IMG/VR virus record: IMGVR_UViG_3300021256_000089
Coordinates: 17,559-81,558 of that record
DNA from: a virus
Taxonomy: Duplodnaviria > Caudoviricetes
Strand: one strand, 5' to 3'
DNA length: 64,000 nucleotides
Shown here in pieces: positions 18,229-64,000 of the stretch; the first letter of the stretch is position 1; every line of letters begins with the position of its first letter. A program made the position numbers and the translations under genes. Below the pieces are notes generated by a model. That model was not told the origin of the DNA. It searched no databases and saw nothing but the letters and a program-made list of their open reading frames with translations.

Positions 18229-18253
18229 TTCTTTATTTCTCCTTATTACCTGT

Positions 18254-33040: not shown

Positions 33041-34291
33041 TTACGGGAACGTAGGCTTGAAGACAAACCGCATCCTGTGCAGATTCATGTCTCCGTCGTT
33101 TCCTTTTTGAATACTGATTTCATTTGCCTTGATGATCATCCAATTATCTAATTTGATATCGCCGGATATCGCAGGCGAATGCTCACTTGGTTCACACCAG
33201 ATCGAATAACCACTGACGCTTGCAATTTTCCACATATGCCCGGTGTCCTCATCATACACCCAGTATCCTGCCGGTTTGTAAGGCAGATGTAAATCATATT
33301 GATCAGAAATCGTAAATGAATTATGTCCGGGTGTTTCGTTACCTTGCAGCTGCACATCACCGTTGCTTCTGAATAATGGCACGCCAGCCGGCTCCAGATA
33401 GATAAAGCCGTAATCGTGATACACGTAATCGAGCGTAACATTTGAATCACTGCCATGACGTGACACACGTCCGTTTAGAGCATCGCATTGAATGTACTGG
33501 CTCTTATCACTAACGCCGCCAATGAAGCGGCAGACTTCAGAATTCGTGTGATTTGTAATCGTCAGTCCTTTGTTAAAAGTGCCACCGACTTCGACACATA
33601 CGGCAGCACGTTCCGTCCCTGGATTGATGACCGGGAACTTGATCAAATTGCTTGTCATACTATCCGCACCGCGAAGGAAATCATACACCACCTGATTGCC
33701 GGATGAGATTCGCCTGGCGTTTTGCGCCAGGTCATCGTTTGCATCTACAACATAACCCATCGCAGAATTGGCGCGCATATCAGCAATCACACGGTTCTTT
33801 TCTGCAATATCTTCTCGTTGTGTTTCGCTGAGCGGTTGATTTTCCTCGTCGATCACATCTTCGTGATCTGTATAATACTGATCGCTTCTTGCAAAAGGAT
33901 AGTAAGCACGCATCTGGATCACAACAATACCATTCTCACGGTTTGTCAGCCCGCTTGCGTTAACGCTTACAACGGTCGCCGTGTACCACAGCCATGGGCG
34001 CTTAGCGAATACAAGCCGTCCAGTCTTCCCACGATGGAACAGCCAGTCAATCTTTGACATGACGCCGTCAAGTACCGGAGATTCCTCAAAGATGCACCGT
34101 AGTGTAAAGTCTTTCGGTTGCATCGTATTGCCGTAATAGTAGCCGCCGTCATGGGCGTCGAAAGCCTGCTCATGCAGCTTATATGCCGCAGGCTTGTATA
34201 CGTAAATGTTGGATATTTCTGGCGCATAGGTCAGGCCGATGTCGGCGATGTCAACACCGTCAAAACTGAAGCCGCCTTTGATTACTGCCAT
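33041..34291 (-). CDS. Distal tail protein (Dit)
   Basis: GFSFDG.DI.DIGL...; GRLVF...PW.WY.A; PFA motif; position after TMP. Confidence 0.8.
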   Translation of the reverse strand: MAVIKGGFSFDGVDIADIGLTYAPEISNIYVYKPAAYKLHEQAFDAHDGGYYYGNTMQPKDFTLRCIFEESPVLDGVMSKIDWLFHRGKTGRLVFAKRPWLWYTATVVSVNASGLTNRENGIVVIQMRAYYPFARSDQYYTDHEDVIDEENQPLSETQREDIAEKNRVIADMRANSAMGYVVDANDDLAQNARRISSGNQVVYDFLRGADSMTSNLIKFPVINPGTERAAVCVEVGGTFNKGLTITNHTNSEVCRFIGGVSDKSQYIQCDALNGRVSRHGSDSNVTLDYVYHDYGFIYLEPAGVPLFRSNGDVQLQGNETPGHNSFTISDQYDLHLPYKPAGYWVYDEDTGHMWKIASVSGYSIWCEPSEHSPAISGDIKLDNWMIIKANEISIQKGNDGDMNLHRMRFVFKPTFP

Positions 34292-34416: not shown

Positions 34417-37400
34417 TTAAGAGCTGAAAGCAAAGTTGGCTGTTTGCAATCCTTGCTTGCTGAGCTCACGCACGAACTCCTCGCCGACCTTGCGGGCAAC
34501 CTCTTCGTAGTCCGCATCTTCTTTCAGTTCCGCTTCATTGATCTCAATGTTCAGCTTTTCAACCGTAAACCCGCTTACGTCACTGAACATGCTGTCAGAG
34601 ATCATCGAGCTGAACGAAGGTACGCGAATCGTCGAGAACGCGTCGAGGAATGCACGCATTGCAGCCGTGTCTTCCGCACTAAGGAAGGCTTCGGGCTTTG
34701 TCTTCGAGCCGTCAACCCAAGCCGGACCGGTAAAGTCTACAAGGCCGCCTTGCGCATACGCTTTCTCGACCTTGCCATATTTAACCTTGTCGCCAACATG
34801 TTTGCGATCCATCGCTTGCTCTTCTGCAAGTTGTTTCGCTGCAAGTTTCGCATATTTCTTCGTGTAAAAAGCATCGCCCTCAGCAACGCCGGAGGCTCTT
34901 ACACTGCCGTTCTTTTTGATGACTTCCCAGGAACGCTTGAATTTATACTTTGGCTCATCATCAATTTCGTCTCCGTCGTGTTCCCCGGCATGTTCCTCAG
35001 AGACAAGCGCAGCGCCGCCAAGCTTTGCCGTACTCCACAAACTCCAGGCTTCATTCCACTGCTCACGCAGCTGACGCTTCCTGTCGTTGCTTGCAGTACG
35101 GTACTCTTCGCTGTCCATCATGAAATCCATGAAACTCTCACGGTCTGTCATCACTGCCGCAACCTGATTCCAGTAATCACGCCAGTATTGATCCGTAAGC
35201 CCCTTCATTTCATCATACATGTCGCCCCAGTTCTGCACCATCAGCTCCTGCTGTTCCTTTGTGCTGTCAGCATATGTCTTATCGTTTTCCTTCAGCCACT
35301 CGATTAAATCTTCGCGGCTCTTCTTCAGCACATCATTCAGCTCGGTTGTGAAGTTGTTATTATCCTCGAGATAATTGTCGAGCCATTCCTGATACTGATC
35401 CGTATACAGATCATAGCCCATGATACGTTCGTCGAGGTCGGCTTTCTGTGCATCTGCTTCCTGATCAGCAATCTTCCAAGCGATTTCGTCCTGCAGCTTC
35501 GCAATCTTGTCACGCAGCTCTGCGGCTTCCCTTGTGCGGGAACTGTCCATCTCAACACGGCTGAGCTGTGCCTGCAGGTTCGCAAGCTCTTCATACTTGC
35601 TTGCCTCGCTCGCAGCGTTCTTCCTCGCGTTCAGCCGCTCATCGATCAGGCTCTTCTCCTGTTCGAGCGCGGCTTTCTTGTTGTCAATGTCCTGCTTCAG
35701 CAGATCCCACTCATCACGATAACGCTGCTTGATCAGATCAAGGATTGTGTTCTCCATGTCGACCGTGCCTTGCAGCCGCTGCCTGCGGAGCTCCTCACGG
35801 TTGTCAAGCTCGGCAGAGATCATATCCTGAATATCAACCTTGTATTGCCTGATCTGTTTGCGGTTCTCCTTCATCTGTTCGAGGTTATCGTGGATTGCCT
35901 GCGTATGCTCCTGGATCGCTTCTTCAGCGGCCTGGATTGCATCGCGCAGCGCGTACCAATCGTCAGAGCCCTGCTCGGTAGCGGCCATCTCATCCCGCAG
36001 CGCAGAGATATTATCTCGCTGATTCTTAATCTGTCTACGGCGCTCCTCGTTTTCCTGCTTGATCAACGTGTTCTCATTTGTCAGTTCGCCAGCATTCTTG
36101 TAACGCGTACGACGATACTGAATCATTTTCAGCATGTGATCGTCCACGGATGCGGAATGTTTCTGACTCTCGATCAGCTGCTGTGCGTGGCTCTTGCCAC
36201 CACCGCCACCACCTCTCGGAGGACGCGTTCCCTGATTGCCAGAACCAAGTTCATCAAGAATCCAATCGAAGCCTGTAGTGTTGCCATCACCATCCTTAAG
36301 CTCTTCAAAATGGCCTTTAATATGCATCGCTTCGAGAATTGCATTTAATGCTTGAATTGTATTAGCCGCATCTGCGCCAATTGTTTCAATCAACCCTGCA
36401 TCATTCCAGTTTACATTGCCATCGGCCACCGTAATAGCAGGCGCAAATGTATCAAACTGTCCCTGGAGTTCAGAGTTTAAAAGAGCAGCGATTTGATTAC
36501 CATAATCTTCGACAGAAATCTTGTCAGCCTCATAAGATTGCTTAAGTGCATCGTCAATGCCGGTCGTGATTTTCTGATCTTTGCCGTATTGTTTTATTTG
36601 TTCGGTGTCGAATCCAGTGATCTGCGCTATTTGATCCATCGTTGTTTTATCGCGTTTGCCAGCTTTAAACTGTTCTCTGTAATATTGTCTGTACGACAAA
36701 TTATTCAGTGCATTTCTCATATCGGTGAGAGCTTTTGCAGATTCAACGGCATCTCCCTGAACATTCTTTAAATAATTGAGAACCTCATCGCCCCTGGACC
36801 CAAACATGGATTTCGCTGCTTCTTGCGCTTCACGCATTGACTGTGCTAATTTCTTCCAATCTTCAGCCGTAACAAGAGCACCTTCACCAAGCTTTGCGAG
36901 AATTTCACTTCCTCCATCAAAGCTTTCGAGTGCTGTTTTAAATACGTCAAACGATACAGCATCTCCGCTGAGCCGTTGGTACTCGGCAAGCATACCCGCC
37001 TGGTCGTTGCTTTGCAGCGCAGACATGAACGTTGCTCCGATGCCACCTTCTCCAGTAAGGATTGCCTGGTTCAAATCGTAGCCGTAACCCTTTTGTCCAA
37101 GCTGATAGTTCTGTAACATTTGCTGGAAGATCGGCCAGTCAAGCGTGCCTTCGGATGTAGCCTGAAGCGCGCTGTACAGTTCTTTCGGGAGCACCTTCGA
37201 CATATTATCGCGGGACCAGGTGACACCAAGTGTGCTGCTGATGCCGCTCATGAATTCCTGGAACCCGGTTGCGCCGTTTGCAACATTCAGCAAATCGAGA
37301 CGTTTGCCGGATAAATCAGGATTTTCCTGAACATACTCTGTCCACAGACCTGCGAATATATCCTCTGGAGACTGGTAATACTGTTTGCCGTTATACATAA

Positions 37401-40400
37401 TATCTGCAGCAGTATATCCAAGATGCCACCCATTACGCTTGGCTTCATCTGGTACACTGTCACCTCGGATATAAGACAATGCTTGATCTAAATTTTCAAA
37501 CGGTATTCCGTCAACACTAAAAGGCAATGCTTCCGGATTGTCCGTTCTTAGTAAAGATAATCGATTCGCTTCGGTAGATGTTGCAAAACGTATTTTTTCT
37601 TCTGTTTGTGCGGCGATATAATCAATATATCGTTGTCTTTGATCTTTAGTCATCTGGCTAAAAGAAAGTCCGCTCTCCAAGCCAGCGTCAGCCGAATAGG
37701 TCTCTGAATTCGTTAACATGTTGCTAATAGAATTATCCAATGCAGTTTTGAGATTCTCATCTGAGACGTAAGCAGAAGAAAGTCCTTTGTTGCTCATCAA
37801 ACCATACACGCGTTCGGACACGTAACCAGACCAATCTGTCAACAACGATTCCACTAATTGATATAACCAGCCGTTTTCCCCAGCTGACTCTATTAATCCA
37901 TCGTAAATTAATGAGATTACATCGTCAGATAAAGAAGTGTTATATGATTGTATTAGCGTAATGAAGTCTCCTGATGTCAGCGATTGATTAGACAAAGCGT
38001 GATCTAATTCTTGATTGCCAGTTGATACACCCGACAATCTTGTTCTGAGATCTTCTGCATTCCTGTCGTAGAAAACTTTTAAAACATTTTGCATTGATTC
38101 ATTGTCGGCTAACGTGCGCATATTAGACCGTTTCCAGCTAACATCTGAATTCATGTTTGTATTCACAATAAATGCCTTATACAATTCAGGGAACTGCTTA
38201 CTCAAAGTAGAAGCATCTACTTGATTATCTTTGATTGTTTGTAAAAGTCCTACAGGAATCGACTTTTGTAAATCGTTGAAAGTGTTTAACGGTGTTAACG
38301 TGCTTTCGATAAATGAAAGCATCTCCGTTGACCATTTCTTTCGACTGTGTTCGCGGGCTGCATTATAATCAGCAAAGCTCATGTTGCCAGCCTCAAAAGC
38401 ATTTTGCCATAAATTCAAAGTATCTTTCATATTCTGCACATCTTCCCGCGAAAAATCAGGAAAATTATTTATATTAGCCTCAAGAAAAGATAATAGTTCA
38501 TCAACATCTAACGATGAAACATCTTGCCAATCTTCCGATATTTCGGGACCGTTTTCACCTTCAATGGCATACGATGCCAATCGGACGAGCGCACTAGGCA
38601 GTCCATCTTCACCAACCGAGTTCACGTTGGCAATATTCAGCATATTATGCGCACGTTTATATTCATCACTATTCTGCAGATTTAACATTTGCAACACGTT
38701 GTCATATAGCTGCTGTTCTTCTGCTGGTGTTAATTTGTCTTTACTGTACGTCACATATCGATTCCAGTATTGATCTATAGCCGACTGTCCTGTTGTTTGT
38801 TCCAACAGATCAGCGAGATTGTCCATCGTAACTCCAATACTGTGTGCATCTTGCCATTGTTTTTCATATGCTTCTGCAGAACTTTGGCGCGTTGCTTCAT
38901 ATTGTAATGTAGCAAGGGTTTGTCTTGTGGTGTCGGTTCGTGCAACAATCCCGTTCAAAGAATCCTGAGCTCCGTTAACGATCTCTGCCCAACGCTCAAG
39001 TTTGTCCGAAGTTGAGTCAATTTCTTTTCCTAATTCGGGGAACAAACCTGTTAATTGTGCCAGATTGTTGTTGAATTGAATCTTATCGGCATAAGCCATA
39101 TTCTCGCCAAGTCGCTGATAAGATTCACCAAGTCTTTTGGTATCATCAATCAATTGCTGATAACGATTGTTGCGATCGTCGGTATCATGCACATAAGCTT
39201 CGAGTGTCTGTTGTTCCATCATCCCTGGTTTTTGCTTCGCTTGTGCATTTCCTATTCCACTTGCCACACCAAGACCGATTGTTCCAAGCAGCAACGTACC
39301 TCCGACAACAGCTCCGGCAACGTCTCCGGTCAGCACTTTGATGACAGTCGTCAATGCAGCGACTGCGCCTGTGATAGCTACAATTGTCGTAACAACATTG
39401 CCGCCATTTTCCGTAATCAGTCGTAAACCATTCACGAATCCGGTTATCGCGTCAACGATACCTTTGATTGCTCCGCTCTTAACAAGATTCTCAACCAGCC
39501 CGTCAAATGTACTCTTCAGCTCGTTGATTGACGCCTGCAAGCTCTTTGCCGCAATCTCATACTTACTCTCCGTGATGCCTTCGCTGTCCTCAGACAACCC
39601 GAGATACTTTGCGAAAGTTTCACCGTTGTCTTCGGCCATGCCCTCCATCAGCGTAGAGAACATATTGCCTGCACGCACGCCGGCAACACTTGTCGTAATG
39701 TTCGCACGCTGCACGTCGCTCATGTCGCCCCAGTTCCTGGCAATGTCATACATGATTTCCGTAGGCGAACGGAACGTATTCTGATCAGACCGCAGATCGA
39801 TACCTGCAAGACGCAGCGCGGTTTCAATTGTAGACAGATCCGTCGTGTCACCGTTCTTGTCGGAGACATAGCCAGTAGACTGCACCTGCCGCAGACGGCT
39901 GAACAGGGTATTCAGAGCCGTACCAACCTGCGTGCCAGACAGCTGCGTTGTCGAAGTCATGACCGTGATCATGCTCGTCAGTTCGCCGTAACTGACACCG
40001 GCAACCTTTGCGGCAGCCGCGCACTTCTGCATTGCTTTACCGATCTCGACAGCCGTTGTGGCTGCGCTGTCGCCGAGAGCGGTAAGAGCGTCCATTGCTT
40101 CTTCGGCACTTTCAACAAGACCGTTCTGTAAAGCGGTCGTAATGATCTTTGTGGCATCCTGAACTTTAGACCCGGTAACCGTAGCGAATTTAATGATCGC
40201 CTCGGAGCGGTCAGCAACTTCGGTATCACTCAGACCCTGGCGGTACAGAGCAGCCTCAACTTGACTGACATTGCCGACGCTTGTACGCAGATTGATCGCA
40301 CGGTCGATCGTGCTGCTGCGGATATCCTGCATCTGCTCGTCACTCTTCATCGTGATCGTTTGGATCTCGGTCATCGATGCGTCGAATTCCATCACGAAGC

Positions 40401-43400
40401 GCTTGGCTTCTTGGATAGCCCTCTGGAACATCCGGCGACCAAGCTGCTGCGTAAGACGAGTGACAGAGACTGCTATTTTGTCGAACACCGTACCGACTAT
40501 CTGATTCGAATTATTAAATCGATCAAGATCTCTTTGCGTATTACTGAGCGCTTGACGATAGCCTTCGACTGCCCGTTGAGAATCTTTGATTCGATTGTTT
40601 ATTCTATCGATGTCTGCCTGATCAGTAGCAGTCTCTAATTGCGCGTTCAGAGTTGCTTGCCGATCCTGTTCCCCTCGTATGCGCTGCTGATAATTAAATT
40701 CATTTTGCCGCAACTGTTGGCCATAGTTCATTCGCTCGTCATACATTCTTCCGAGCATTGTTTTGGTATATCTGCTGCCATGCATGCGTCTAAAGTTTTC
40801 AGACGCATAAACTGCTTGCTGCGCATTAAACTCAGATTGAGCAGCTTGCATTTCGTCACGACGTGCAAGAGCTTCATCTTGAATTTGAATTTGACGCGCT
40901 ACTGTTTGCCTGTATTGATTCAAAGATTCTTCTGATAATAAACCTTCTATTTGATTGCGCGTTTCACTGTCTTTCGGTGTTCTAGATTTTAATTTTTGTA
41001 ATGTCGCTATTCGATTGTCTACAGCCCAATCTATTCTTTGAGCTCTCGTTGCATTTTGCCCTGTTTGTTGAAGCGTTAATTGGGCTACGTTCGTTTGTAA
41101 AGCATTAAAGTTTTGATCGTATTCTAACCCTTGTCGAGCGAGATAGTCTTTTTCTGCTTTTTTATCAGAATATTTTCTTAACCAGAAAAGACGTTCTTCA
41201 TCGTTATCGGCAGCTTTGATATTTTTTAATATATCGTTTCTTCTTGCCGTCCTCATCCGATAAATAAACTGGTCTCTGCTTTCTGCTTGATCATTATATT
41301 TGTTTTCAAACGTATCTACTCGTACACCTTTGTCTCCAAAAGACACGGATCTTTCTATGCCATATATATCCGCATCAATTCTCTGCTTATTCTCTAAGCC
41401 GCCATTTTCGATATAATCATTGATACGATCTTTGCTTTTCTTATATTGTTCTATGATTCGTCCAAGCTGATTTGCTATATCAGTGTCTCCATTTTTCTCA
41501 GCTGTGGTTTTTTCTTCTGTAGCTTTTTTAATTAATGCCTCATAAGATAAAACTCGTTGTTCTAATTCTGTTATCTCATCGCGCTGTTTCTTTGCAAAAA
41601 TCTCTTTCGGATTTACTTTACCGAGTAATTCAGAGACACGATATGCATCGTCTTCTATTTCGCGATTGACGAATTTTTCAGCGGAACCATCTTTCCCGTA
41701 GAGTTGTGCTTTTATTTCGGCCTCTTTTTGTTCTGCTGCTTTAAACGCATCTCGAGCATTAATTGCCTGATTGACTCTGTCTTGTTCGGCAGCTTTATCC
41801 TGTGCTGATTGATTGAAATCAACTAACCATCCTTCGTTCGGCTCATTGATTTTTGAAGCGTCAAAGTATGCAGAATTGTTCTTTAATCCTTTATACGTAG
41901 CACTACTTTCTTGGATTATACGAAGAGCTGACAATAAAGGAGAATCCGTATCAGATTTCTTAACACCATTTAACATATTGTTGACTGTTTCTTCCGCATT
42001 GTTTAAATCTGTAATTGCTGCTTTTATTTCCAGCTCATTGTTTTGTCTCCTGGCTTGTCTTGTTTTGTTTTGTATTTCTTCGATGTCTGCTCTTATTTCT
42101 GGATTGTCTCCATATTTTGCCGACATGGCTTGAAGAGTTGCGTCTGAAAACAACATGTTTAATTCGTTTCTTCTTGATTCGAATCTGCTTGTGTGCCTAA
42201 ACATTTCTCCATCTGCCATTCTATTGCTTTCTTTATACAAAGAAGATCTTATTTGAGACAGATGTTCTTTGTTCTCAGCATATTGAGACAAATAGAAATC
42301 TAATGCATTTTGTTCTTGTGCACTCATCGTTGCATAATCTCGTCTATTAGAAAAAATCTCATCAACTTTACGTTTCGATTCAGCTCGATCTAATAATTCT
42401 CTCGGAGATAACAATCTGGTAACCTCATCAAACAATCCGTTGTTAGACGTGTCTGTTAAATCGCCATACAAAGATTGATATGCATTAACCATCTTATTTG
42501 CCCAAGATTTTTTCAACTCTTCTCCAAGCGTTCCTGCTGAAACATCCAATCTGTGAATTTGGCCAGTTTTTGGATCCCATCCTTCGAATTTTTCAAAATT
42601 GCTTTCCCATTCGCCCGTCTGTTGATTGTATTGGCCGAAGCCTTTGAATATCTCATATTCTTTGGCGCGCACCGTATCTCCAGAGGCGTTTGCGTTATGA
42701 TATTCCTTGGCAAGCTCTTCGAATAGCGAAGCATAATATGCACTTTGAGGAATAGATTCATCTGCTCCTGTACCAGAAGATTTATAGTCTACGATTCTAA
42801 TCTTTCCATTACTGTCTAATACCATCATGTCTGGTTTTACAGTCGTAGCATATGTTCTTACTTCTTCGCCCTGCTGAGCTTCTGGCGCTAGTTGTTCTCT
42901 TGTCGTTCTAGTTCTAACAACATTACCGTTGGCATCTGTATATACATGCCTATAAACATTACCAGAATCATTAGAAGGAGCTATTGTGTATTCTTTGTTA
43001 TTTTTCCCGACAAGGACTCCTTCGCGTCCAACAAGCCTGTCCCCCGGATGCAAAATATTCGTTAAAAACTTTTCAAAGTTGCCAGCAGTTGCAACTGTAC
43101 CATCTTCGTTGAATACACCAAGCAAGGCGTTTAAATGCTCCTGTATCCCTTGCAGCGTTCCACTCTTCGGCACGCCGCTTGCTATCAGACGGCCATCTTT
43201 AGACGATAAAGTTACACCTGCTTGATTCTTCAAATCCCCAAGATCTGTTCGTACGCCTTCTAAAATTGGCGCTCTCATTAAGTTGAATAAATTGTATGCT
43301 GCCTGAGCTGGTGTCATTGCTTGCTTTGTGCCTAATGTCTTCCAATATGATTCTATTCCTGTATGCATTAATTGGCCTATGTGAGTCATCGGGTTGCTTC

Positions 43401-46400
43401 TCGCGCTGGAAAAACTTGAATCTATAATACTGGCCAAATTATATGCTTTCGTATTGCCACTATATAGCTTATTATATCTTTCATAATCAACTTCACCAGT
43501 AGTTGTTTTTAATCCAGGAGCAATTGGTTGACCGGTTTCTACATCTATTACTTCTATGCCAGGTATTTGTAATTGCGCATCTTTATTCTCGTCGCTATTA
43601 ATCCAATGCTTTAATTGACTCCATGCAAAAGCCCATTTAGATCCAGAAACATGCCCGGTTTTTGCTATCTCTCTCGCTCTTGATTCGATGCCAGCTCTCA
43701 ACGTAGCTCTTTCTTCATTTGTTTCCGGATTGTTAGCTTGTAATTCCTTGATACGTTTAGCCGCATCTGCTTGTTGTTGCTTAATGGCTTTCATAAAAGC
43801 ATCTTCGACTTCTTGACGGGCTTCGTCATCAATAGTCGGGGTCAATAAACTTTCAAGAACATCTGCATAGGCACCCGCCAACAAATCGTTGTTTTGATTG
43901 GCTTGCTGTCTATACTGTTCTACCGTGTCTCGTATATTTGTTTCATTCATAGCTTCCCCAGAATTCAACTCTTTAAGTCTTTTTCTGAAAGAAGCTAACA
44001 AAGAAGATTCCGTCGTGAGAGAATAGCCATACGCTTTCTCTCTGTCATTAATGCTTGTTTCCCATTTTTGTGCGATTAAATTACCTTTATCTAGATCATT
44101 TTCTCCAACCACTCTGTTTCTTAAAACGGTTTGCTCATATAAATCAAGATACCATCTCGCGGCTTCTGATTCAACACTGGAATCTGAATGTCCATATTTA
44201 GTGTTATACCAGTTTTCCATTTTTTGTAGAGCATCGGTGTTAAAGTGACCAGAACCTAAATTACGCGCCTCTGTTCTTCTTAAAGCTAATCCTAGCACAC
44301 CGTGAGTATCAAACATGGTAGGAAGGCTGGTAGAAAAAATATTAACGTCTTTCAACGCTTGCACAGGATCAGAAGAATTAGATGCTATCTTTAATGCACG
44401 CAGAAAACGTTCATGAGTAGCTCCTTTCTCCATAACTCCTAATCCCTTTAAATCTATTTGTGCACCAGTGTTTTGACCTTCTGATGTTGCCTTGTCGTAT
44501 GCTCGATTGGCGGCAACAATTTTCATCATTGTTTCCCTATCGACCATGCTTGCTTCTTGTTTCCTTATAGCTGCAGATGCAGACGCCATATCTTGCCGCG
44601 AATTAATGTGATACATGATAGCATCTCTTATAGATTCAACAATTGTTCCAGATTTCTGCTTCTCGGGTTGATCCTTTTGTAGCCCGACTTGAGATTTTTC
44701 AATGTCTCGTAATTGAGCATAATAATCTTCAAAATATTTTTTTGCCTCTCCAACTGCTTGAGGCGGTAATCCGAGGAATGCCGTGATCGTATCACCATCA
44801 AAGTCGCCAGTATTCATTTGATATAATTGCGACGGGGTTGTTAGCATCGACAACAAGTCTGAAGGATCTCTTCCGAGTTCTTTTAGCCTTTTTCTATATG
44901 TGGAATCTATAACATATTTCTTCTTCGATGCGTTATAAGTAATAGCTCCATTTCTTATGGCTGCCGAAATAGTACCCATCGTAGAAGGATTGCGTGTCAT
45001 TGCATCAATTTGTTCGTCTCTAATTCCAGGTGCATATACTATCTGATTAGCACCATTGTTCTTCCTATCATCCATGATATCAGGCATAAACATTTTCCAC
45101 TCATCTGGCATTTGAGACAAATCTTGCCAGTTTTCAACGCCACCGACATATTGTAAAGCCTGTAAAATTGCTTCCGGCAAAACTCCAGGAGTAGCTTCTG
45201 CGTAGCCCGACCATTTAGATCCTTTAAGCAACAAATCCCCTCTTGCTCTCGACTCCTCTAAACTGCGAATTTCTGATGCTATTTGTCTATTCGCAGATAA
45301 GCTTGTCCAGATCCAAGAAGGATCACGTTTCATTTCCTTTTGAGCAGACGCATTGTTCTTAAAAAACTTCTGACGGCCCTCTAATGTTTGAAGTTCTCTA
45401 AATCTTTGTTCATATAATTCTTCAGACTGCTTTCTTAATTCTGGTCCAGCATGTATAGCTCGAGCAATAGATTCCGGCATAACATCTTTTCTACTTTGCA
45501 TTTGCGCATCTGTATGCATAGAAATGAAACCACTATGTCCTTCTCCTGCTGCAAGCTGAGAATACTCCATAATCATACGTGCACGTTCTTCAGGTAACAA
45601 TTGAACCATGCCATTGCTATCTATGCGTCTAGCTTTTTCTAAGTCTTTTCGTTTTACAGTTGGAAAATGATATGAAAAGTCTTCCAGCGGCATGTGTAAA
45701 AAATTGTCTATACCTTTCATACCGGTTGCGTCTATGAGATAAGGCAACGATTGATCCATTACATTTACAAAGTACCTTTGCCGAAGATCATCAATTTCTT
45801 CTTGTGTCAATTTAATTTGTTTGCCTTTTTCATCGTTTCTATATCCGGTCATAAATTGTCTTAAGATTTCAGCATCGTCTGTCGTAGGCAAATACACTTC
45901 GCCGTTGTCTCCGAACAAAGGAGTATTGCTATCAACGCCTTTGACTGCACCTTGCTTGACTTGATCTGAAAGAGACCTCAGCATAGGTCTCCAATCAAGC
46001 GCGCTTAAATAAAACTTATCTTGTCCGTGAGCAAACCTCATTTGTTGACCATAATGGAATATTTGAGGATCGCCCCACGCTTGGCCGTCGATCCGTAATC
46101 CGGTATCTTTGCCAATTCCAAGCATGTTATAAAAAGCACCCATATTCACAAAAGCTCCGGGATTATTAAGAAGACGATAATTTGTACCAAAGACATCCTC
46201 GTAATAATGTCCACTCGAATTAAGCTTTTTTACATTGTTTATTTGTTTGATTGTTTTAGCTTTATCATCCGGAACAATTAGTCCACCATAGTTACCAAGT
46301 TCAAAAGGCGACGGAAAATGATTGTCTTTGAATGTTTTTTCTATGCTATTTTTCTGCGAAACAGGAATCATAACGATATCATCGTGCCCGATAAACGCTA

Positions 46401-48114
46401 CCGTATAATCATCAGTTTCTCCTGTTTCTTCGTTCCATCGATACGGAGTCGATTTAGTTGGATCAATTAATCGATCATACATTCGTTTTCTTCTGATATC
46501 AGTCGTAGGTGTTACTTTATGTGTATTCGGATCTTCATCAAACATGCCACGCACATCGACACGAATCATAGATGGTCTACCCTGCGTGTATTGACTTCCG
46601 TTTTCGGTAACACCGTAACCATAACTACCATTGCCATGCATGCCAAGCATATGGGTTAATCCGCTTTCTGTAACGGCCACCCAATGGTCATCGGCTAATT
46701 CATCGACGCCTTTTCTCCAATCTTTTCTCCAGTTAAAAGATCTAGTCATAAGAGATCCGGTTTCAGGATCAATTTTCGTTTTTGGAACATAGTATTGCTC
46801 TAAAGGTCTACTTCTTTGTAATGTTTGGTTTTTAAGTCTAGTGCTATGTTCTCGATTGCTTAGTAAATTATATTGTTGCATAAATTTTTCATCAACATAC
46901 GGAACAACATTTAATGGATTGCCGGATCTATTGTAAAACGTCAATGAGCCTAAAAAGTCAATTGCATCCTGATAAGCAGCTACACGATTACCGTTTCTAT
47001 TCAACGCTTGCTCTGCATTTTCAATTTTCGTCGGATCGCTTTGCCATATGGCTCCACTCATTTTCGCCGTTCTATATTGTTGCATCAACAAACCAGCGAA
47101 CATGTTCAAGTTTTCAGCAGCTATAGTGTCTTTAACTCTATAGTGTAAGCCTTTCGAGAATCTATTTTTTGTACCTTCCGGATGGTAATAAGGGCTATCC
47201 GTTTGTAAAATACCAGCACGCATTAACAGTGGTGCTAAATACTCCATATACTGAGTTGTATTTAAATATTTGTCGATGTTTTGTTTGGCCGTAGACCACG
47301 GAGCAAGTTTAACCAATCGATCTAAAACAGGTCGCACAGAAGACGAATCTTTGCTATAACTGTTAAAGGCTCTCACAAAAGATTCATTTGGCAATATATC
47401 GCTCATCAACAAGGGCTTGTTTGTAACAGGACGATTGTTTACTCTCGACAAAATGCGTCCTTTTTCAATTTGAGCAATTGATGAACCAATTGGACTATAT
47501 GATCTTATTATGTTTTCCGTAACAGAACGAAGCTCTGATTGTGATAAATGATATCCTAAACCAGATATAGAGTTTTTATACAGGTCATTAGAAGTTATTT
47601 CTTTTACAAGTTTGCGCATGTCAACGTTTTCTATCGAAGTTTGCAGAGACGTTATCATAGGTTCGATAATAGACGACATGATTTGTGGTCCATATTTCTC
47701 CATATCAAAATGAGTTTTTTGATTTGTACGGAATAATTTTTGAGACCGTATATAATTAGAAATCGAACCGGAAATTAGTCCAGTATCGTAATCTCCTTGC
47801 GTTGAGTCCAATGTGGCAGCTACATCTGCTTTTTTGTCTCCAAAATGCATACCGTACAAAGAGTGAATAGAAGATAACACACTTTGTATCGGCATATACA
47901 TCGCATTAGAAATTACTTCATTTTTACTTGCTTTTTTTTGCAAACTATCTAAAAAAACTGAAGCATGTGTTAATGTCGTTTCCACATCGCTTAAAGGATT
48001 TGTTTGGGACATTTGGCTTAATATTTGTTGCATCTCTAATAATTCTTTTCTAGCATTCGAAAAAGAATCAGTTTGTACTATATTAACGTCGATATCAATT
48101 TGACGATCAGCCAT
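34417..48114 (-). CDS. Giant tape measure protein (4565 aa) fused to putative two-barrel RNA polymerase and PD-(D/E)xK nuclease domains
   Basis: TP901-type TMP core at about aa 2560-2840, hydrophobic segment, C-terminal AYAQGGLVDFTGPAWVDG..KPEAFL; N-terminal half has GDFDGD and PD..DYK motifs. Confidence 0.9.
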   Translation of the reverse strand: MADRQIDIDVNIVQTDSFSNARKELLEMQQILSQMSQTNPLSDVETTLTHASVFLDSLQKKASKNEVISNAMYMPIQSVLSSIHSLYGMHFGDKKADVAATLDSTQGDYDTGLISGSISNYIRSQKLFRTNQKTHFDMEKYGPQIMSSIIEPMITSLQTSIENVDMRKLVKEITSNDLYKNSISGLGYHLSQSELRSVTENIIRSYSPIGSSIAQIEKGRILSRVNNRPVTNKPLLMSDILPNESFVRAFNSYSKDSSSVRPVLDRLVKLAPWSTAKQNIDKYLNTTQYMEYLAPLLMRAGILQTDSPYYHPEGTKNRFSKGLHYRVKDTIAAENLNMFAGLLMQQYRTAKMSGAIWQSDPTKIENAEQALNRNGNRVAAYQDAIDFLGSLTFYNRSGNPLNVVPYVDEKFMQQYNLLSNREHSTRLKNQTLQRSRPLEQYYVPKTKIDPETGSLMTRSFNWRKDWRKGVDELADDHWVAVTESGLTHMLGMHGNGSYGYGVTENGSQYTQGRPSMIRVDVRGMFDEDPNTHKVTPTTDIRRKRMYDRLIDPTKSTPYRWNEETGETDDYTVAFIGHDDIVMIPVSQKNSIEKTFKDNHFPSPFELGNYGGLIVPDDKAKTIKQINNVKKLNSSGHYYEDVFGTNYRLLNNPGAFVNMGAFYNMLGIGKDTGLRIDGQAWGDPQIFHYGQQMRFAHGQDKFYLSALDWRPMLRSLSDQVKQGAVKGVDSNTPLFGDNGEVYLPTTDDAEILRQFMTGYRNDEKGKQIKLTQEEIDDLRQRYFVNVMDQSLPYLIDATGMKGIDNFLHMPLEDFSYHFPTVKRKDLEKARRIDSNGMVQLLPEERARMIMEYSQLAAGEGHSGFISMHTDAQMQSRKDVMPESIARAIHAGPELRKQSEELYEQRFRELQTLEGRQKFFKNNASAQKEMKRDPSWIWTSLSANRQIASEIRSLEESRARGDLLLKGSKWSGYAEATPGVLPEAILQALQYVGGVENWQDLSQMPDEWKMFMPDIMDDRKNNGANQIVYAPGIRDEQIDAMTRNPSTMGTISAAIRNGAITYNASKKKYVIDSTYRKRLKELGRDPSDLLSMLTTPSQLYQMNTGDFDGDTITAFLGLPPQAVGEAKKYFEDYYAQLRDIEKSQVGLQKDQPEKQKSGTIVESIRDAIMYHINSRQDMASASAAIRKQEASMVDRETMMKIVAANRAYDKATSEGQNTGAQIDLKGLGVMEKGATHERFLRALKIASNSSDPVQALKDVNIFSTSLPTMFDTHGVLGLALRRTEARNLGSGHFNTDALQKMENWYNTKYGHSDSSVESEAARWYLDLYEQTVLRNRVVGENDLDKGNLIAQKWETSINDREKAYGYSLTTESSLLASFRKRLKELNSGEAMNETNIRDTVEQYRQQANQNNDLLAGAYADVLESLLTPTIDDEARQEVEDAFMKAIKQQQADAAKRIKELQANNPETNEERATLRAGIESRAREIAKTGHVSGSKWAFAWSQLKHWINSDENKDAQLQIPGIEVIDVETGQPIAPGLKTTTGEVDYERYNKLYSGNTKAYNLASIIDSSFSSARSNPMTHIGQLMHTGIESYWKTLGTKQAMTPAQAAYNLFNLMRAPILEGVRTDLGDLKNQAGVTLSSKDGRLIASGVPKSGTLQGIQEHLNALLGVFNEDGTVATAGNFEKFLTNILHPGDRLVGREGVLVGKNNKEYTIAPSNDSGNVYRHVYTDANGNVVRTRTTREQLAPEAQQGEEVRTYATTVKPDMMVLDSNGKIRIVDYKSSGTGADESIPQSAYYASLFEELAKEYHNANASGDTVRAKEYEIFKGFGQYNQQTGEWESNFEKFEGWDPKTGQIHRLDVSAGTLGEELKKSWANKMVNAYQSLYGDLTDTSNNGLFDEVTRLLSPRELLDRAESKRKVDEIFSNRRDYATMSAQEQNALDFYLSQYAENKEHLSQIRSSLYKESNRMADGEMFRHTSRFESRRNELNMLFSDATLQAMSAKYGDNPEIRADIEEIQNKTRQARRQNNELEIKAAITDLNNAEETVNNMLNGVKKSDTDSPLLSALRIIQESSATYKGLKNNSAYFDASKINEPNEGWLVDFNQSAQDKAAEQDRVNQAINARDAFKAAEQKEAEIKAQLYGKDGSAEKFVNREIEDDAYRVSELLGKVNPKEIFAKKQRDEITELEQRVLSYEALIKKATEEKTTAEKNGDTDIANQLGRIIEQYKKSKDRINDYIENGGLENKQRIDADIYGIERSVSFGDKGVRVDTFENKYNDQAESRDQFIYRMRTARRNDILKNIKAADNDEERLFWLRKYSDKKAEKDYLARQGLEYDQNFNALQTNVAQLTLQQTGQNATRAQRIDWAVDNRIATLQKLKSRTPKDSETRNQIEGLLSEESLNQYRQTVARQIQIQDEALARRDEMQAAQSEFNAQQAVYASENFRRMHGSRYTKTMLGRMYDERMNYGQQLRQNEFNYQQRIRGEQDRQATLNAQLETATDQADIDRINNRIKDSQRAVEGYRQALSNTQRDLDRFNNSNQIVGTVFDKIAVSVTRLTQQLGRRMFQRAIQEAKRFVMEFDASMTEIQTITMKSDEQMQDIRSSTIDRAINLRTSVGNVSQVEAALYRQGLSDTEVADRSEAIIKFATVTGSKVQDATKIITTALQNGLVESAEEAMDALTALGDSAATTAVEIGKAMQKCAAAAKVAGVSYGELTSMITVMTSTTQLSGTQVGTALNTLFSRLRQVQSTGYVSDKNGDTTDLSTIETALRLAGIDLRSDQNTFRSPTEIMYDIARNWGDMSDVQRANITTSVAGVRAGNMFSTLMEGMAEDNGETFAKYLGLSEDSEGITESKYEIAAKSLQASINELKSTFDGLVENLVKSGAIKGIVDAITGFVNGLRLITENGGNVVTTIVAITGAVAALTTVIKVLTGDVAGAVVGGTLLLGTIGLGVASGIGNAQAKQKPGMMEQQTLEAYVHDTDDRNNRYQQLIDDTKRLGESYQRLGENMAYADKIQFNNNLAQLTGLFPELGKEIDSTSDKLERWAEIVNGAQDSLNGIVARTDTTRQTLATLQYEATRQSSAEAYEKQWQDAHSIGVTMDNLADLLEQTTGQSAIDQYWNRYVTYSKDKLTPAEEQQLYDNVLQMLNLQNSDEYKRAHNMLNIANVNSVGEDGLPSALVRLASYAIEGENGPEISEDWQDVSSLDVDELLSFLEANINNFPDFSREDVQNMKDTLNLWQNAFEAGNMSFADYNAAREHSRKKWSTEMLSFIESTLTPLNTFNDLQKSIPVGLLQTIKDNQVDASTLSKQFPELYKAFIVNTNMNSDVSWKRSNMRTLADNESMQNVLKVFYDRNAEDLRTRLSGVSTGNQELDHALSNQSLTSGDFITLIQSYNTSLSDDVISLIYDGLIESAGENGWLYQLVESLLTDWSGYVSERVYGLMSNKGLSSAYVSDENLKTALDNSISNMLTNSETYSADAGLESGLSFSQMTKDQRQRYIDYIAAQTEEKIRFATSTEANRLSLLRTDNPEALPFSVDGIPFENLDQALSYIRGDSVPDEAKRNGWHLGYTAADIMYNGKQYYQSPEDIFAGLWTEYVQENPDLSGKRLDLLNVANGATGFQEFMSGISSTLGVTWSRDNMSKVLPKELYSALQATSEGTLDWPIFQQMLQNYQLGQKGYGYDLNQAILTGEGGIGATFMSALQSNDQAGMLAEYQRLSGDAVSFDVFKTALESFDGGSEILAKLGEGALVTAEDWKKLAQSMREAQEAAKSMFGSRGDEVLNYLKNVQGDAVESAKALTDMRNALNNLSYRQYYREQFKAGKRDKTTMDQIAQITGFDTEQIKQYGKDQKITTGIDDALKQSYEADKISVEDYGNQIAALLNSELQGQFDTFAPAITVADGNVNWNDAGLIETIGADAANTIQALNAILEAMHIKGHFEELKDGDGNTTGFDWILDELGSGNQGTRPPRGGGGGGKSHAQQLIESQKHSASVDDHMLKMIQYRRTRYKNAGELTNENTLIKQENEERRRQIKNQRDNISALRDEMAATEQGSDDWYALRDAIQAAEEAIQEHTQAIHDNLEQMKENRKQIRQYKVDIQDMISAELDNREELRRQRLQGTVDMENTILDLIKQRYRDEWDLLKQDIDNKKAALEQEKSLIDERLNARKNAASEASKYEELANLQAQLSRVEMDSSRTREAAELRDKIAKLQDEIAWKIADQEADAQKADLDERIMGYDLYTDQYQEWLDNYLEDNNNFTTELNDVLKKSREDLIEWLKENDKTYADSTKEQQELMVQNWGDMYDEMKGLTDQYWRDYWNQVAAVMTDRESFMDFMMDSEEYRTASNDRKRQLREQWNEAWSLWSTAKLGGAALVSEEHAGEHDGDEIDDEPKYKFKRSWEVIKKNGSVRASGVAEGDAFYTKKYAKLAAKQLAEEQAMDRKHVGDKVKYGKVEKAYAQGGLVDFTGPAWVDGSKTKPEAFLSAEDTAAMRAFLDAFSTIRVPSFSSMISDSMFSDVSGFTVEKLNIEINEAELKEDADYEEVARKVGEEFVRELSKQGLQTANFAFSS
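39600..40440 (-). other. TP901-family tape measure core domain
   Basis: EFDASMTEIQTIT...RQGLS...SEAIIKFATV...EIGKAMQK.AAAAKVAGVSY.EL....TV......SG..VGTALNTLFSRL. Confidence 0.85.
42600..43640 (-). other. RecB-like PD-(D/E)xK nuclease domain within TMP
   Basis: FAWSQLKHW; GQLMH (G1580/H1584); KPD (D1762); IVDYKS (D1776/K1778); QSAYY (Q1790). Confidence 0.7.
44470..46140 (-). other. Putative two-barrel (DPBB) RNA polymerase domain within TMP
   Basis: IDGQAW (D676), QQMR..HGQDK (R693, K700), ATGMKG (K800), MTRNPS (R1041), GDFDGD (D1104-D1108, nt 44791-44805), AYDKA (D1207). Confidence 0.7.
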
Positions 48115-48146
48115 AAATCAATCCCTCCTTTGGGTAAAACAATAAG

Positions 48147-48572
48147 TTACGGCCATTCAAAAGTCCATTCATTGTCGCTTGTGCCGTGAAAGAAATCGTT
48201 CCATATCTTTTCGATTTCGTCCCACGTTATCTCGCCGCCTTTTCGACTATTAGTGTTAGTGGTTGCGTCTATGTTTTTGTCGCAATCAACGTCTTCTGCA
48301 AACGGGATTTCCGTTTTATCTTCATTGTTGCTTTTATTTTCGTTGAACTCTACAAGCTCAATCAGTCGATCAAGATACCAACGGGCCTTCTTCAGATCCT
48401 CGATTCCATTCTTGTGTTTCCATCTGCACATGTACTTTAACACATTGCCAGTATTCGTAGCTTCGCCACCCCGAAGATCTGCAGTAAAAGCCTCGATCAC
48501 ATCGATTGCTTCGAGGCCATTTTTAGTCTGATAATGTTTCGGATGATTTATCGCATCGTATTCCTGTGCCAT
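48147..48572 (-). CDS. DUF3310 family protein (second copy)
   Basis: DAINHPKHY....EAIDVI.......GNVLKY..RW..KNG.EDLKKA.WYL. Confidence 0.85.
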   Translation of the reverse strand: MAQEYDAINHPKHYQTKNGLEAIDVIEAFTADLRGGEATNTGNVLKYMCRWKHKNGIEDLKKARWYLDRLIELVEFNENKSNNEDKTEIPFAEDVDCDKNIDATTNTNSRKGGEITWDEIEKIWNDFFHGTSDNEWTFEWP

Positions 48573-48584
48573 GCATATGCCTCC

Positions 48585-49040
48585 TTAATCCTTCCTCTTG
48601 GAGAAATCAAGCACAAGACCGTCATCATTCTTGCCGATGATACGATCTTTCATCGTAAGCTCTTTCTCTTTATTATCGAGCTGCTTTTCTTTCTGCTTGA
48701 CTTCCTCGTTCAGCTTCATATAATTCATCATGTTCTTAATGAGATCGTTTTGTTCGTCTTCCATCATCGGGTCGATTCCATTTGCGATTACCGCATACAG
48801 CCAATCAACAACGGCCTGTGTACGGTTGTTTTGCGCATTACGCTTCTCAACCGTCAGTTTTAAAATCTCCGCAAGCTCATCCATAGTAACAACAGGCTTG
48901 CCTGTATCCGCGTCTGGCTCTGTCCAACCTTCACTGCGGATCGTTTCTTTGTACAGCGGTTCAAGATATGTCAGCCCGCTGTTGTCGTCTGTGGTCACGA
49001 GAGTCTCTACCGCTTCGTTGATAATCTCATGATAAGTCAT
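48585..49040 (-). CDS. Hypothetical protein
   Basis: AGGAGG RBS before ATG 49040; C-terminal coiled coil. Confidence 0.65.
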   Translation of the reverse strand: MTYHEIINEAVETLVTTDDNSGLTYLEPLYKETIRSEGWTEPDADTGKPVVTMDELAEILKLTVEKRNAQNNRTQAVVDWLYAVIANGIDPMMEDEQNDLIKNMMNYMKLNEEVKQKEKQLDNKEKELTMKDRIIGKNDDGLVLDFSKRKD

Positions 49041-50307: not shown

Positions 50308-51195
50308 TTAGTTGCCGCCACCGCCCAGGTTCTCGCCACCGCCAGTTTCACCGCCGCCAGTTTCACCGCCGGAGGTGCCGTTAGAAGCAGTCGCCTGCTT
50401 GTTAGGCACATAGCCGCAGATGTAGTCCTTACCGTCGTTGCGCTTCGCGTCCATTGCACTCCAGGTCAGCTGGAAGGTGGAGGGAGACTTGTAAGAACCA
50501 TCGAAGCCAGGCATCGTGGTGACGCGGCAGCGATAGATCTTGATCACATAGTAACCCTTGATAGCAGCGTCGGTGCAGTCGTCGCCGTTGTTGTACACGG
50601 GGAACTTCATGGTCGCCTCGCCGATAGCGGAAGACTTGTTGTCGATCTCGATGACATCGGTGTCGGGATGCTCAACGATGTAGGTCACTTCCAGGGTCAG
50701 GGGCTTAGTGATGACTGTATCAGGCAGCTTCACTGTTTTGCCATTCTCGCCCTTCGTCCACTCGAAGTCGGTGCCCTTCTCCAGACCATTAATGATAACA
50801 TCCTTGATCTGGGTGGCCTCGTAGTTGCCGGGCTCATCGAGCTCAACCTCAAAGTAACCCTCTTTGACGTCCTTGGCGGGATCGAGAGCGAAGGTATCGG
50901 TCTCGTAGGTGGTGAAAGCCTTGGTCTCGGCGTTCACGGCGTTCGCCATCGCGAACAGGTCGGAGTTAAACTGACCGGAGGTCATCTGCACTTCCATGGT
51001 GCCGGCACCGGGCAGATAGGCCACGGGATAGTTGGACCAGCCGGCGTTCACTTCCTGGAACTGCACGTTGGGTTGGATGGAAGCCTGGGTGATCTCGTCG
51101 AAGTAGAAGACCTTGTTGTCGCAGCGCTTGAAGTGGACGCGCGGCACATCGGCGATATAACCCTTAATCGCAGGAATATAAGTGCTCATTCTCAT
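50308..51195 (-). CDS. Major tail tube protein
   Basis: Position after tail terminator; GC-rich biased codons; followed by a terminator. Confidence 0.75.
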   Translation of the reverse strand: MRMSTYIPAIKGYIADVPRVHFKRCDNKVFYFDEITQASIQPNVQFQEVNAGWSNYPVAYLPGAGTMEVQMTSGQFNSDLFAMANAVNAETKAFTTYETDTFALDPAKDVKEGYFEVELDEPGNYEATQIKDVIINGLEKGTDFEWTKGENGKTVKLPDTVITKPLTLEVTYIVEHPDTDVIEIDNKSSAIGEATMKFPVYNNGDDCTDAAIKGYYVIKIYRCRVTTMPGFDGSYKSPSTFQLTWSAMDAKRNDGKDYICGYVPNKQATASNGTSGGETGGGETGGGENLGGGGN

Positions 51196-54177: not shown

Positions 54178-55176
54178 TTAACCGATCTTGTAAGCGCCGA
54201 TAGTGGGCAGCTTGCCGCTCACGAAGCCAGCACCAAAGGTCTGGTCGAGACGAATCTCGTACACCAGATCATCGATGTTCTGAGACTCGAACGCATTCAC
54301 GGGACCCTCATTCAGCACCTTCAGATTACGCTGATCGGCGCTCAGCCCACCGGGCAGGATGTACAGCCAGTTCCGATTCAGCACGGGAGTGGTCGTACCC
54401 TCGAGATAGCCGTTCTGCATCGCCACAACGGCACGGCCATTGTAACGGCCGATGAAGCCATTGGCGTTCATCTCGTTCATCATGTCGTCGCTCTGCACAA
54501 CAGTGCCAGCGTTGCCGGTGAAGCCGGTAATCGCATTCAGCTGAGCCACGGCGCTGCGGTCGCCCAGGATGGTCACGGGGCCCAGGCCGTCAAAGTACAC
54601 CAGCTGGTTGTCCAGGGTGGCCTTAACGATGCCGGTACCGGTGGCATAGAAGGGAGACGCATAGTCGTCGATCGCGTCATGCAGCACCTGCTCGACCTTC
54701 AGCAGCTTGGCGTTGGTCATCTCGGCGTTCGCTTCGCGGATCAGGTCGGCCATGTTCACCTTGCCGGTGCGCAGGTCGTAGATGTTGATCGCAGGACGAG
54801 CAGAGATCTCGACTGTGTCAAGAGTCACCTGACGATCGCTCACATAGCTGCGGGCAGTCGTAGAGCCGCCCTTGGCCTGAATGAAAGCATGGATGCCGCC
54901 CGTACGGAAACGGAACACGGCCTTGTCACCATAAGCGATGTTCTTCACATCGGCAACCTGATTCAGGAAGTCCAGAGACTTCTGCTGCAGGTTATCAACC
55001 GTATAAGCCACGGTCTGGGCGATCATGTGGCGGTTGGTCGGATTGAGATCCTTCACAAGCTCATCGCAGATAGCGGAAGCCTCAGCCACAACATTAGAAT
55101 CCAGGCGCTCGTTATTCGCCTGCGCGGCAAGCACATTAATCAGCTTGCTGTCACGAGTGATGTTGATATCAGCCAT
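54178..55176 (-). CDS. Major capsid protein (HK97 fold)
   Basis: 332 aa; after scaffold and decoration genes; ISARPAINIYDLR, NGFIGRYNG; strong codon bias. Confidence 0.85.
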   Translation of the reverse strand: MADINITRDSKLINVLAAQANNERLDSNVVAEASAICDELVKDLNPTNRHMIAQTVAYTVDNLQQKSLDFLNQVADVKNIAYGDKAVFRFRTGGIHAFIQAKGGSTTARSYVSDRQVTLDTVEISARPAINIYDLRTGKVNMADLIREANAEMTNAKLLKVEQVLHDAIDDYASPFYATGTGIVKATLDNQLVYFDGLGPVTILGDRSAVAQLNAITGFTGNAGTVVQSDDMMNEMNANGFIGRYNGRAVVAMQNGYLEGTTTPVLNRNWLYILPGGLSADQRNLKVLNEGPVNAFESQNIDDLVYEIRLDQTFGAGFVSGKLPTIGAYKIG

Positions 55177-62872: not shown

Positions 62873-62925
62873 GACGGCGAGCCAGCAAGCCGTTGAGCTG
62901 GCAAGCGAGGTGCAGACAATGCACC
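62873..62925 (+). ncRNA. Repeated pseudoknot-plus-hairpin motif, copy A
   Basis: GACGGC/GCCGTT, GCCAGC/GCTGGC, AAGCGA, GGTGCA/TGCACC; second copy at 63930. Confidence 0.55.
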
Positions 62926-63045
62926 AAGTAGGGTGCGCTTACGAAAGGCATCAACCGACATTGTGTTGGGCACGTCTTACAAGATGTGTAACTTGCGACG
63001 CGGCACAAGCCGCACCCCCTCGAAAGAGGGAGAAGGAGGTTCCTA

Positions 63046-63983: not shown

Positions 63984-64000
63984 GAGAAGCATGCTCTCCA

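Follow-up and report, generated by a model that had tools for sequence, protein, structure and literature searches.

A 64,000-nucleotide stretch of a tailed-phage genome (hereafter the window) encodes a giant tape measure protein (TMP) whose front half probably carries a catalytically competent single-chain two-barrel RNA polymerase (RNAP), and we consider it likely that this enzyme travels in the tail as part of the TMP and acts when the DNA enters the host. The window makes up the right-hand 64 kb of a phage contig of 81.6 kb from IMG/VR (IMGVR_UViG_3300021256_000089), with an estimated completeness of 67%. The polymerase-like region, residues ~431-1290, resembles the branch of two-barrel enzymes that includes YonO of phage SPbeta and QDE-1, and is fused through a predicted nuclease domain and a spacer to the ruler of the tail. 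An earlier reading of the bare sequence (the original prediction) had placed a two-barrel RNAP in the front half of this TMP, and both the predicted fold and a conserved series of motifs now support that placement. The gene and the parts of it that make up the polymerase module are as follows:

34417..48114, minus strand: whole TMP gene (P0001), a single open frame of 4,565 residues
44245..46824, minus strand: two-barrel RNAP-like core, residues ~431-1290, assigned from predicted fold and motifs
46006..46098, minus strand: predicted first-barrel motifs DG (D676, G677) and QxRx6K (Q690, R693, K700)
45712..45741, minus strand: conserved lysine motif YLIDATGMKG (K800), residues 792-801, with K800 invariant in the family
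44983..45003, minus strand: RxP motif AMTRNPS (R1041, P1043), residues 1038-1044, invariant
44776..44820, minus strand: putative catalytic loop NTGDFDGDT within QMNTGDFDGDTITAF, residues 1099-1113, with D1104, D1106 and D1108 encoded by nucleotides 44791-44805
44476..44508, minus strand: YD..TS....KG motif, here NRAYDKATSEG, residues 1203-1213, with Y1206 and D1207 invariant
43675..44244, minus strand: helical C-terminal part of the polymerase module, residues 1291-1480, conserved with the module in homologues

The original prediction named six motifs, all of which are found at their assigned residues in the reading frame, with LRIDGQAWG spanning residues 673-681 and YGQQMRFAHGQDKFYL residues 688-703. 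DFDGD (residues 1104-1108) is the sole DxDxD sequence in the entire protein, and the RxP motif lies 60 residues before the Asp triad, so that the pair matches the pattern [RK]xPx{20,100}DxDxD that has served as a filter for two-barrel RNAPs (Supplementary Data 4 of PMC10770324). The D1207 motif sits in the long helix following the Asp loop, where the T/S and G positions are near-invariant. The order of these motifs (DG, R..K, K, RxP, DxDGD and an Asp in the next helix) is that of YonO and the PF05183 family, represented by QDE-1 (PDB 2J7N/7Y7P) and RDR2 (7W82); as had been proposed, the series fits the RNA-dependent RNA polymerase (RdRP)/YonO branch better than the cellular beta/beta' type.

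An exhaustive phmmer search with residues 401-1500 against 1.84 billion representatives returned 22 proteins, mostly giants of 4,352-6,710 residues, with homology over about residues 430-1460. Two further homologues came from a word-indexed search, and all carry the tape-measure family PF10145; scanning metagenome contigs with the back-translated catalytic motif added further members of the family. Of the roughly 25 giant homologues, most are 21-27% identical to the TMP, and mean column identity in the alignments is 15-26%. Amid this divergence, TGD[FY]DGDT is identical across all full-length homologues, and in alignments of 12-27 sequences D676, Q690, R693, K700, K800, R1041, P1043, Y1206 and D1207 are invariant or near-invariant, as is T-G-D-x-D-G-D-T at residues 1102-1109; G677 is kept in at least 90% of the alignment rows. 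R693, K700 and K800, candidates for the basic residues that a barrel other than that of the Asp loop would supply to the active site, do not vary in the family and fall in a beta-rich part of the model that has good confidence. The conservation of the Asp triad and of the Arg and Lys residues, on which the original prediction had staked its case, is thus borne out, and because these residues are fixed while the remainder of the module has diverged, selection appears to have held the putative active site.

A single-sequence AlphaFold2 model of residues 601-1300 was unusable, with a mean predicted local distance difference test (pLDDT) of 36.5, and was set aside. Modelling of residues 421-1480 with a 27-row alignment gave a pLDDT of 76.7 and a predicted template modelling score (pTM) of 0.70, and the part that holds the DG and QxRx6K motifs reached a pLDDT of 79-93. 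This model was compared exhaustively with 48,161 chains in VIA-align, of which 50 rows were listed. QDE-1 came first (Z 8.0, 428 residues aligned), followed by maize RDR2 (Z 7.9, 425 aligned), and the eighth match was gp62 of phage P74-26 (8f5m; Z 6.3, 349 aligned), the non-virion RNAP homologue of the P23-45 group of phages. Among the matches listed, the long ones are all two-barrel RNAPs, and the others are helix bundles of ~75 residues that fall on the C-terminal helices; residues 1291-1480 are all-helical in the model and gave generic helix-bundle matches only. A second VIA-align comparison placed RDR2 (7w82) at Z 10.0 (root-mean-square deviation 4.2, 372 aligned). Four QDE-1 entries scored Z 7.6-8.1 there, and the next row dropped to 5.6; over the two comparisons, the QDE-1 alignments cover 375-432 residues (375-428 at Z 8.0-8.1).

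Libraries of predicted structures gave the same picture. The top two matches in BFVD were phage models annotated as RNA-dependent RNA polymerase (E 2.9e-3 and 1.4e-2, probability 0.97-0.98). In the ESM Atlas, the best match was a Bacillota cluster of which 48% carries PF05183. It aligned over 570 residues, within model residues 13-870, at template modelling (TM) scores of 0.45 and, by target, 0.58; a viral cluster came next at TM 0.50, and the remainder fell to about 0.2. The YonO/PF05183 family thus provides the best structural matches (Z 7.6-10.0; Atlas TM 0.58). Enzymes of this kind stand first in four structure searches, and since these drew on different libraries their agreement points to the YonO/QDE-1 branch and supports an RdRP/YonO-type two-barrel fold for residues ~433-1290 of the TMP. 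A Toprim-like interpretation of the DxD motif was dropped when the fold searches converged on two-barrel polymerases.

The protein that carries this module is a tape measure by both family and position. Pfam PF10145 matches residues 2609-2812 with 98.4 bits (E 6e-28; cut-off 33.2 bits), residues 2330-3280 are matched by eight PHROG TMP families (28, 4211, 1533 and 1272 among them), and the gene stands in the tail module, with tail-tube and small tail genes upstream and the Dit gene downstream. Polymerase and ruler share one reading frame at this locus, and the same build is common to about 15 full-length homologues. An identical 4,565-residue TMP is encoded by a 105,395-bp contig in ENA, whose terminase is also identical to that of the window. 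Outside the polymerase module, the TMP divides as follows:

46825..48114, minus strand: N-terminal region, residues 1-430, fold unassigned and without a Pfam match; partly conserved in the giant homologues; guanine-plus-cytosine (GC) fraction 0.355
42565..43434, minus strand: RecB/Cas4-like PD-(D/E)xK nuclease domain, residues ~1561-1850, assigned from its motif series
41125..42564, minus strand: spacer, residues 1851-2330, probably a coiled coil; poorly conserved and without a match in a Pfam-type family search; GC 0.365
38275..41124, minus strand: canonical tape-measure core, residues 2331-3280, assigned from PF10145 and the PHROG TMP families
34420..38274, minus strand: C-terminal region, residues 3281-4565, with conserved blocks in common with the giant homologues

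The putative nuclease follows the polymerase module directly. Its motifs GxxxH, PD, (D/E)xK and QxxxY occur in order and are conserved in 15 homologues (G1580/H1584, P1761-D1762, D1776-Y-K1778-S and Q1790/Y1794), where position 1588 is usually acidic. The match to Pfam PF12705 stays below the gathering threshold (17.8 bits against 22, E 0.0035) and that to Cas4 has an E of 0.29; feature matches in the ESM Atlas include PDDEXK_1 clusters.

The phage also encodes a second two-barrel RNAP, separate from the TMP. The 105-kb ENA contig, ~10 kb past the left end of the IMG/VR contig, contains a gene for a 928-residue YonO orthologue (L266:2113-4899, plus strand) with 35% identity to SPbeta YonO (E 8e-141) and the motif FDCDGD. 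Its neighbours encode a reverse transcriptase, Sak, a single-stranded DNA-binding protein, a primase-helicase, a YonJ-like protein, PDDEXK_1 and PolIII-alpha; the reverse transcriptase gene lies directly upstream (L266:615-1793, plus strand), and its counterpart in a near-identical relative (L263:146-1324) matches Pfam RVT_1 with an E of 1e-20. A distant relative (IMGVR_UViG_3300031992_000072) encodes three two-barrel polymerase-like proteins, one of them the TMP-fused P0007 of 5,958 residues:

16506-19436, minus strand: YonO-like protein of 976 residues, with FDVDGD and a PF05183 match at E 7e-14
45586-48837, minus strand: second YonO-like protein of 1,083 residues, with a helix-hairpin-helix, MDFDGD and a PF05183 match at E 3e-5
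67169-80401, plus strand: TMP-fused polymerase (P0007), with TGDYDGDT

Judging from their gene content, such phages would combine the polymerase on the tape with one or two free enzymes, in parallel to phage P23-45.

Base composition sets the enzymatic half of the TMP apart from the ruler. The N-terminal 2,330 residues are encoded at a GC of 0.36-0.42 and a third-position GC (GC3) of 0.21-0.35, compared with a GC of 0.46 in the ruler core and a GC of 0.52 and GC3 of 0.62 at the C-terminus; the terminase, portal and YonO genes have a GC of about 0.50-0.52. The lower GC of the enzymatic half (41125-48114) relative to 34420-41124 suggests that this half was acquired from elsewhere, apparently from a source of lower GC. 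The resident yonO gene has a GC of 0.50 and the fused polymerase one of 0.40, and because the two are unlike in this respect the fused polymerase does not appear to be a recent duplicate of yonO.

Fusion of a polymerase to a tape measure is a known design. The original prediction knew of no such protein, but gp96 of Thermus phage P23-45 is one, so far the sole case in which the design is proven (Chaban et al. 2024, PMC10770324). It consists of a two-barrel RNAP, with DFDGD at residues 779-783, fused to a TMP; it works in vitro, where residues 327-1124 are the smallest fragment that retains activity, and its structures are available (PDB 8H2M/8H2N), with related phages in P74-26, G20c and TSP4 (Chaban et al., Nat Commun 2024, PMC10770324). 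Full-length gp96 is present in virions and is bound to pre-early genes 5 min after infection, after which a second, non-virion RNAP, gp64, takes over (PMC10770324). Like gp96, which has 5,002 residues, the protein described here would be a giant TMP that begins with a two-barrel RNAP in a single chain, with a DFDGD loop in an [NS]TG.DFDGDT context and an RxP motif upstream, and both phages have a second, non-virion two-barrel RNAP. The two differ in that, apart from the catalytic loop, neither their polymerase parts nor their rulers show detectable homology, and in that a RecB-like nuclease is fused here, whereas gp96 has no reported nuclease and has a metallopeptidase. Their hosts differ as well: the gp96 phage infects thermophilic Thermus, whereas the present, uncultured phage is SPbeta-like and integrase-bearing, with a host that is probably in Bacillota. 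The design has thus been known since 2024, and what appears to be new is the lineage, with no homology to gp96 beyond the catalytic loop, a YonO/QDE-1-like predicted fold, the nuclease, the foreign composition, an SPbeta-like phage that looks temperate, and the YonO partner.

The virion RNAP of phage N4 is a T7-like enzyme and not a two-barrel one. This polymerase and gp66 (6VR4) of phi14:2, a crAss-like phage, are further cases of polymerases in large ejected virion proteins (PMC10770324). By analogy, the polymerase described here would also reside in a very large virion protein, and those of phi14:2 and N4 are ejected to start transcription; unlike the TMP, however, they are internal proteins of podoviruses or crAss-like phages and no tape measures, and neither is among the structural matches listed. 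In SPbeta, late genes are transcribed by YonO, a DNA-dependent RNAP that stands free (Forrest et al., Nat Commun 2017, PMC5467207). In contrast to this non-virion enzyme of ~840 residues, the domain studied here is fused to the TMP.

Several observations weigh against the interpretation of the module as an active polymerase delivered by the tape measure. The first concern the model: its overall fold is like that of two-barrel RNAPs and matches RDR2 and QDE-1, the second of which the original prediction had suggested for comparison, but confidence is lowest in the barrel with RxP and DFDGD (pLDDT under 50 for model residues 618-631 and 682-698), and a Foldseek search of the PDB with the whole model found nothing at E of 0.001 or below, with RDR2 at rank 14 (E 2.5). 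The VIA-align Z scores of 8-10 are themselves middling by that tool's own scale. At the level of sequence, hhalign comparisons of the family profile with YonO, with two alignments of the YonO family and with the YonO of this phage gave P values of 0.08-0.27. The top alignments all land on matching motifs and in this are consistent with the interpretation, with RIDG...QMR...K on TDGCG...MVR...KG of YonO, RxP on LRSPH (P 0.084) and NTGDFDGDT on FDNDGDK, although none of them is significant. The Pfam RdRP family PF05183, the sole Pfam family matched by more than one family member, was reached at a sub-significant E of 0.077 at best and by 2 of 12 members; neither PF05183 nor YonO thus shows significant sequence similarity to the module, and PDB sequence searches by phmmer and by profile returned nothing relevant. 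Comparison with gp96 gave an alignment on the catalytic loop only (NTG-DFDGDT against STGVDFDGDT, BLASTP E 0.069), to which a profile comparison by hhalign added a non-significant E of 0.008 over 39 columns on the same loop. The full-length TMP aligned with gp96 at the level of noise, without evidence of homology, and the gp96 structures 8H2M/8H2N are not among the 50 VIA-align matches listed, an absence that does not exclude similarity.

The distribution of the family and the lifestyle of the phage count on the same side. No match to the module was found by tblastn in 50,697 phage records, and thus no cultured relative has it. The phage carries an integrase, which suggests that it is temperate, and a polymerase found only in the virion cannot then be essential after induction. 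Finally, three relatives have a frameshift or stop in the nuclease domain that interrupts the giant frame, with homology resuming in another frame, so the fusion of polymerase and ruler may not always be intact:

L016, positions 3311-3398: frame break
L267, positions 9986-10040: frame break, in a copy that also lacks the D-Y-K motif
L268, positions 4903-5074: frame break

Sequencing error, decay or programmed frameshifting could each account for these breaks. Short forms of ~1,620-1,730 residues (P0003, P0015 and P0016) were considered as free-standing polymerases and rejected, because they break inside the nuclease and homology continues out of frame; they are interrupted giants and no separate gene class. 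When standalone homologues of 520-3,024 residues were sought by profile, P0003 alone came back, and every member of the polymerase family that was found is a giant protein with PF10145 or a piece of one. The degenerate DNA pattern for TGD[FY]DGDT found members in viral and metagenome contigs and none among the 120 genome matches listed, a scan that leaves room for prophage carriers of the module, and a search for relatives with the TMP as sole query protein found none.

In the lambda paradigm, the TMP fills the lumen of the tail with its N-terminus toward the head. If the present TMP is arranged in the same way, a copy would be built into every tail with the polymerase nearest to the head and to the leading end of the DNA. 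On infection the TMP would be expelled ahead of the DNA, so that the polymerase arrives with the DNA that enters first and could transcribe it without the host polymerase, as proposed for gp96. The phage would thus have a pair of polymerases, one in the virion and the other, YonO, made in the cell. Because the phage has an integrase and would have no virion polymerase at hand when a prophage is induced, our expectation is that the fused enzyme works at entry only, either in transcription of the first-entering genes or in transcription-assisted DNA entry, and not the whole lytic programme. The nuclease may process the incoming DNA end or attack host nucleic acid. The fusion, the locus, the motifs with their conservation and the predicted fold are direct results, whereas polymerase activity, presence in the virion and ejection are steps that we infer.

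An active polymerase delivered by the TMP might instead have a task other than the synthesis of early mRNA and, with the nuclease, handle nucleic acid at entry; priming of replication or recombination, RNA-templated synthesis as in QDE-1 and RDR2, and the countering of host defence are possible tasks. The best structural matches, RDR2 and QDE-1, are RNA-dependent enzymes, throughout the family the polymerase is followed by a nuclease whose motifs are intact, and the phage seems to be temperate with a YonO of its own, such that its transcription needs might be covered. However, likeness of fold is silent on template preference, the enzyme has no primase-like or helicase fusion partner, and the characterized phage members, YonO and gp96, are DNA-dependent transcriptases (PMC5467207, PMC10770324). 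We regard such a task as unlikely.

We give little credence to a scheme in which the half of the TMP that comprises polymerase and nuclease is removed or left behind during tail assembly, and acts only in the producing cell, in a late or auxiliary role, rather than being injected. The distinct composition of the N-terminal 2,330 residues (GC 0.36-0.42) would fit a separable unit, as would the frameshift or stop in three relatives, which parts a polymerase product of ~1,600-1,730 residues from the rest, and on general grounds a folded enzyme of such size fits poorly in a tail tube. The breaks, however, lie within the nuclease domain rather than where two domains meet, and so look like errors or damage; moreover, the single frame is retained by about 15 independent contigs, and the polymerase of P23-45 is found in virions within full-length gp96 (PMC10770324). 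A degenerate, non-catalytic remnant that serves only as a structural or ruler segment would account for the absence of significant similarity at the sequence level to any active polymerase and for the low confidence of the active-site barrel, but is very improbable given that the Asp triad, RxP and the basic residues are invariant amid 21-27% identity, which indicates selection on an active site.

Returning to a polymerase that is carried by the TMP and acts at entry, we tentatively propose a broader scheme, in which we place rather less than even confidence. The fusion of polymerase and TMP may have arisen independently of the Thermus phages, in a lineage of large SPbeta-like phages, through the placement of a cassette of foreign composition, with a YonO/QDE-1-type RNAP and a RecB-like nuclease, on the head-proximal end of the ruler, with the N-terminus of the TMP serving as a general and exchangeable platform for enzyme delivery. 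Polymerase and nuclease might then act together on the incoming DNA end, and the polymerases might form a cascade of two or three, with the virion RNAP followed by one or two enzymes of YonO type.

The surroundings of the TMP gene place the phage among SPbeta-like siphoviruses. The late arm around the gene has the standard siphovirus order, from the terminase through the head genes and the tail tube to Dit, with a 1,980-residue protein next in the arm:

58769-60421: terminase
57125-58750: portal
54178-55176: capsid protein, with a Pfam YonB match
50308-51195: tube protein, with a Pfam YomU_Tube match
33041-34291: Dit, downstream of the TMP gene

The capsid protein has its nearest cultured relatives in Geobacillus virus E3, SPbeta-like Bacillus phages and large Enterococcus siphophages, and the polymerase module was not found in these. 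The Pfam matches of capsid and tube mark the phage lineage as SPbeta-like; its host is probably in Bacillota. The position just before the TMP gene is the usual site of tail assembly chaperones; here, the gene directly upstream (48147-48572, minus strand) encodes 141 residues that match many PHROG 'nucleotide kinase' families, and in the relative L267 the gene in the equivalent position carries Pfam DUF3310. Downstream of the tail genes, at 10314-17392 (minus strand), two large proteins of 1,233 and 1,100 residues contain Hoc-like immunoglobulin-type repeats (phrog_10993). Left of the window, the IMG/VR contig (G000:C1:304-12464; L249) encodes PolIII-alpha (1,045 residues), the anaerobic ribonucleotide reductase NrdD, ThyX, RuvC, PhoH, ClpP and a dUTPase.

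Repeats that might serve as a promoter for this polymerase in particular were searched for in the early region and near the terminase, and nothing could be tied to the enzyme. A 53-nucleotide element occurs twice with 75% identity (62887-62939 and 63945-63997) in the small-gene region by the terminase end. In the early region of a near-identical relative (L264:1141-1421), three tandem 40-nucleotide repeats are followed by two 64-nucleotide AT-rich copies that end in ATAATATATA[AG]TG, a cluster that could be an origin or a promoter cluster.

If the fused polymerase is active and ejected, the strategy of carrying a polymerase on the tape would recur beyond one thermophilic genus, in mesophilic phages that probably infect Bacillota, and this recurrence would use a polymerase lineage different from that of gp96. 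It raises the question of what role a virion polymerase plays for a seemingly temperate phage that already encodes a YonO. The module offers a compact YonO/QDE-1-like candidate enzyme of ~860 residues for studies of minimal two-barrel polymerases, together with a natural fusion of polymerase and nuclease. Neither Pfam nor PHROGs nor sequence searches of the PDB recognize this polymerase module, and giant TMP genes are therefore worth checking for enzymatic cargo.

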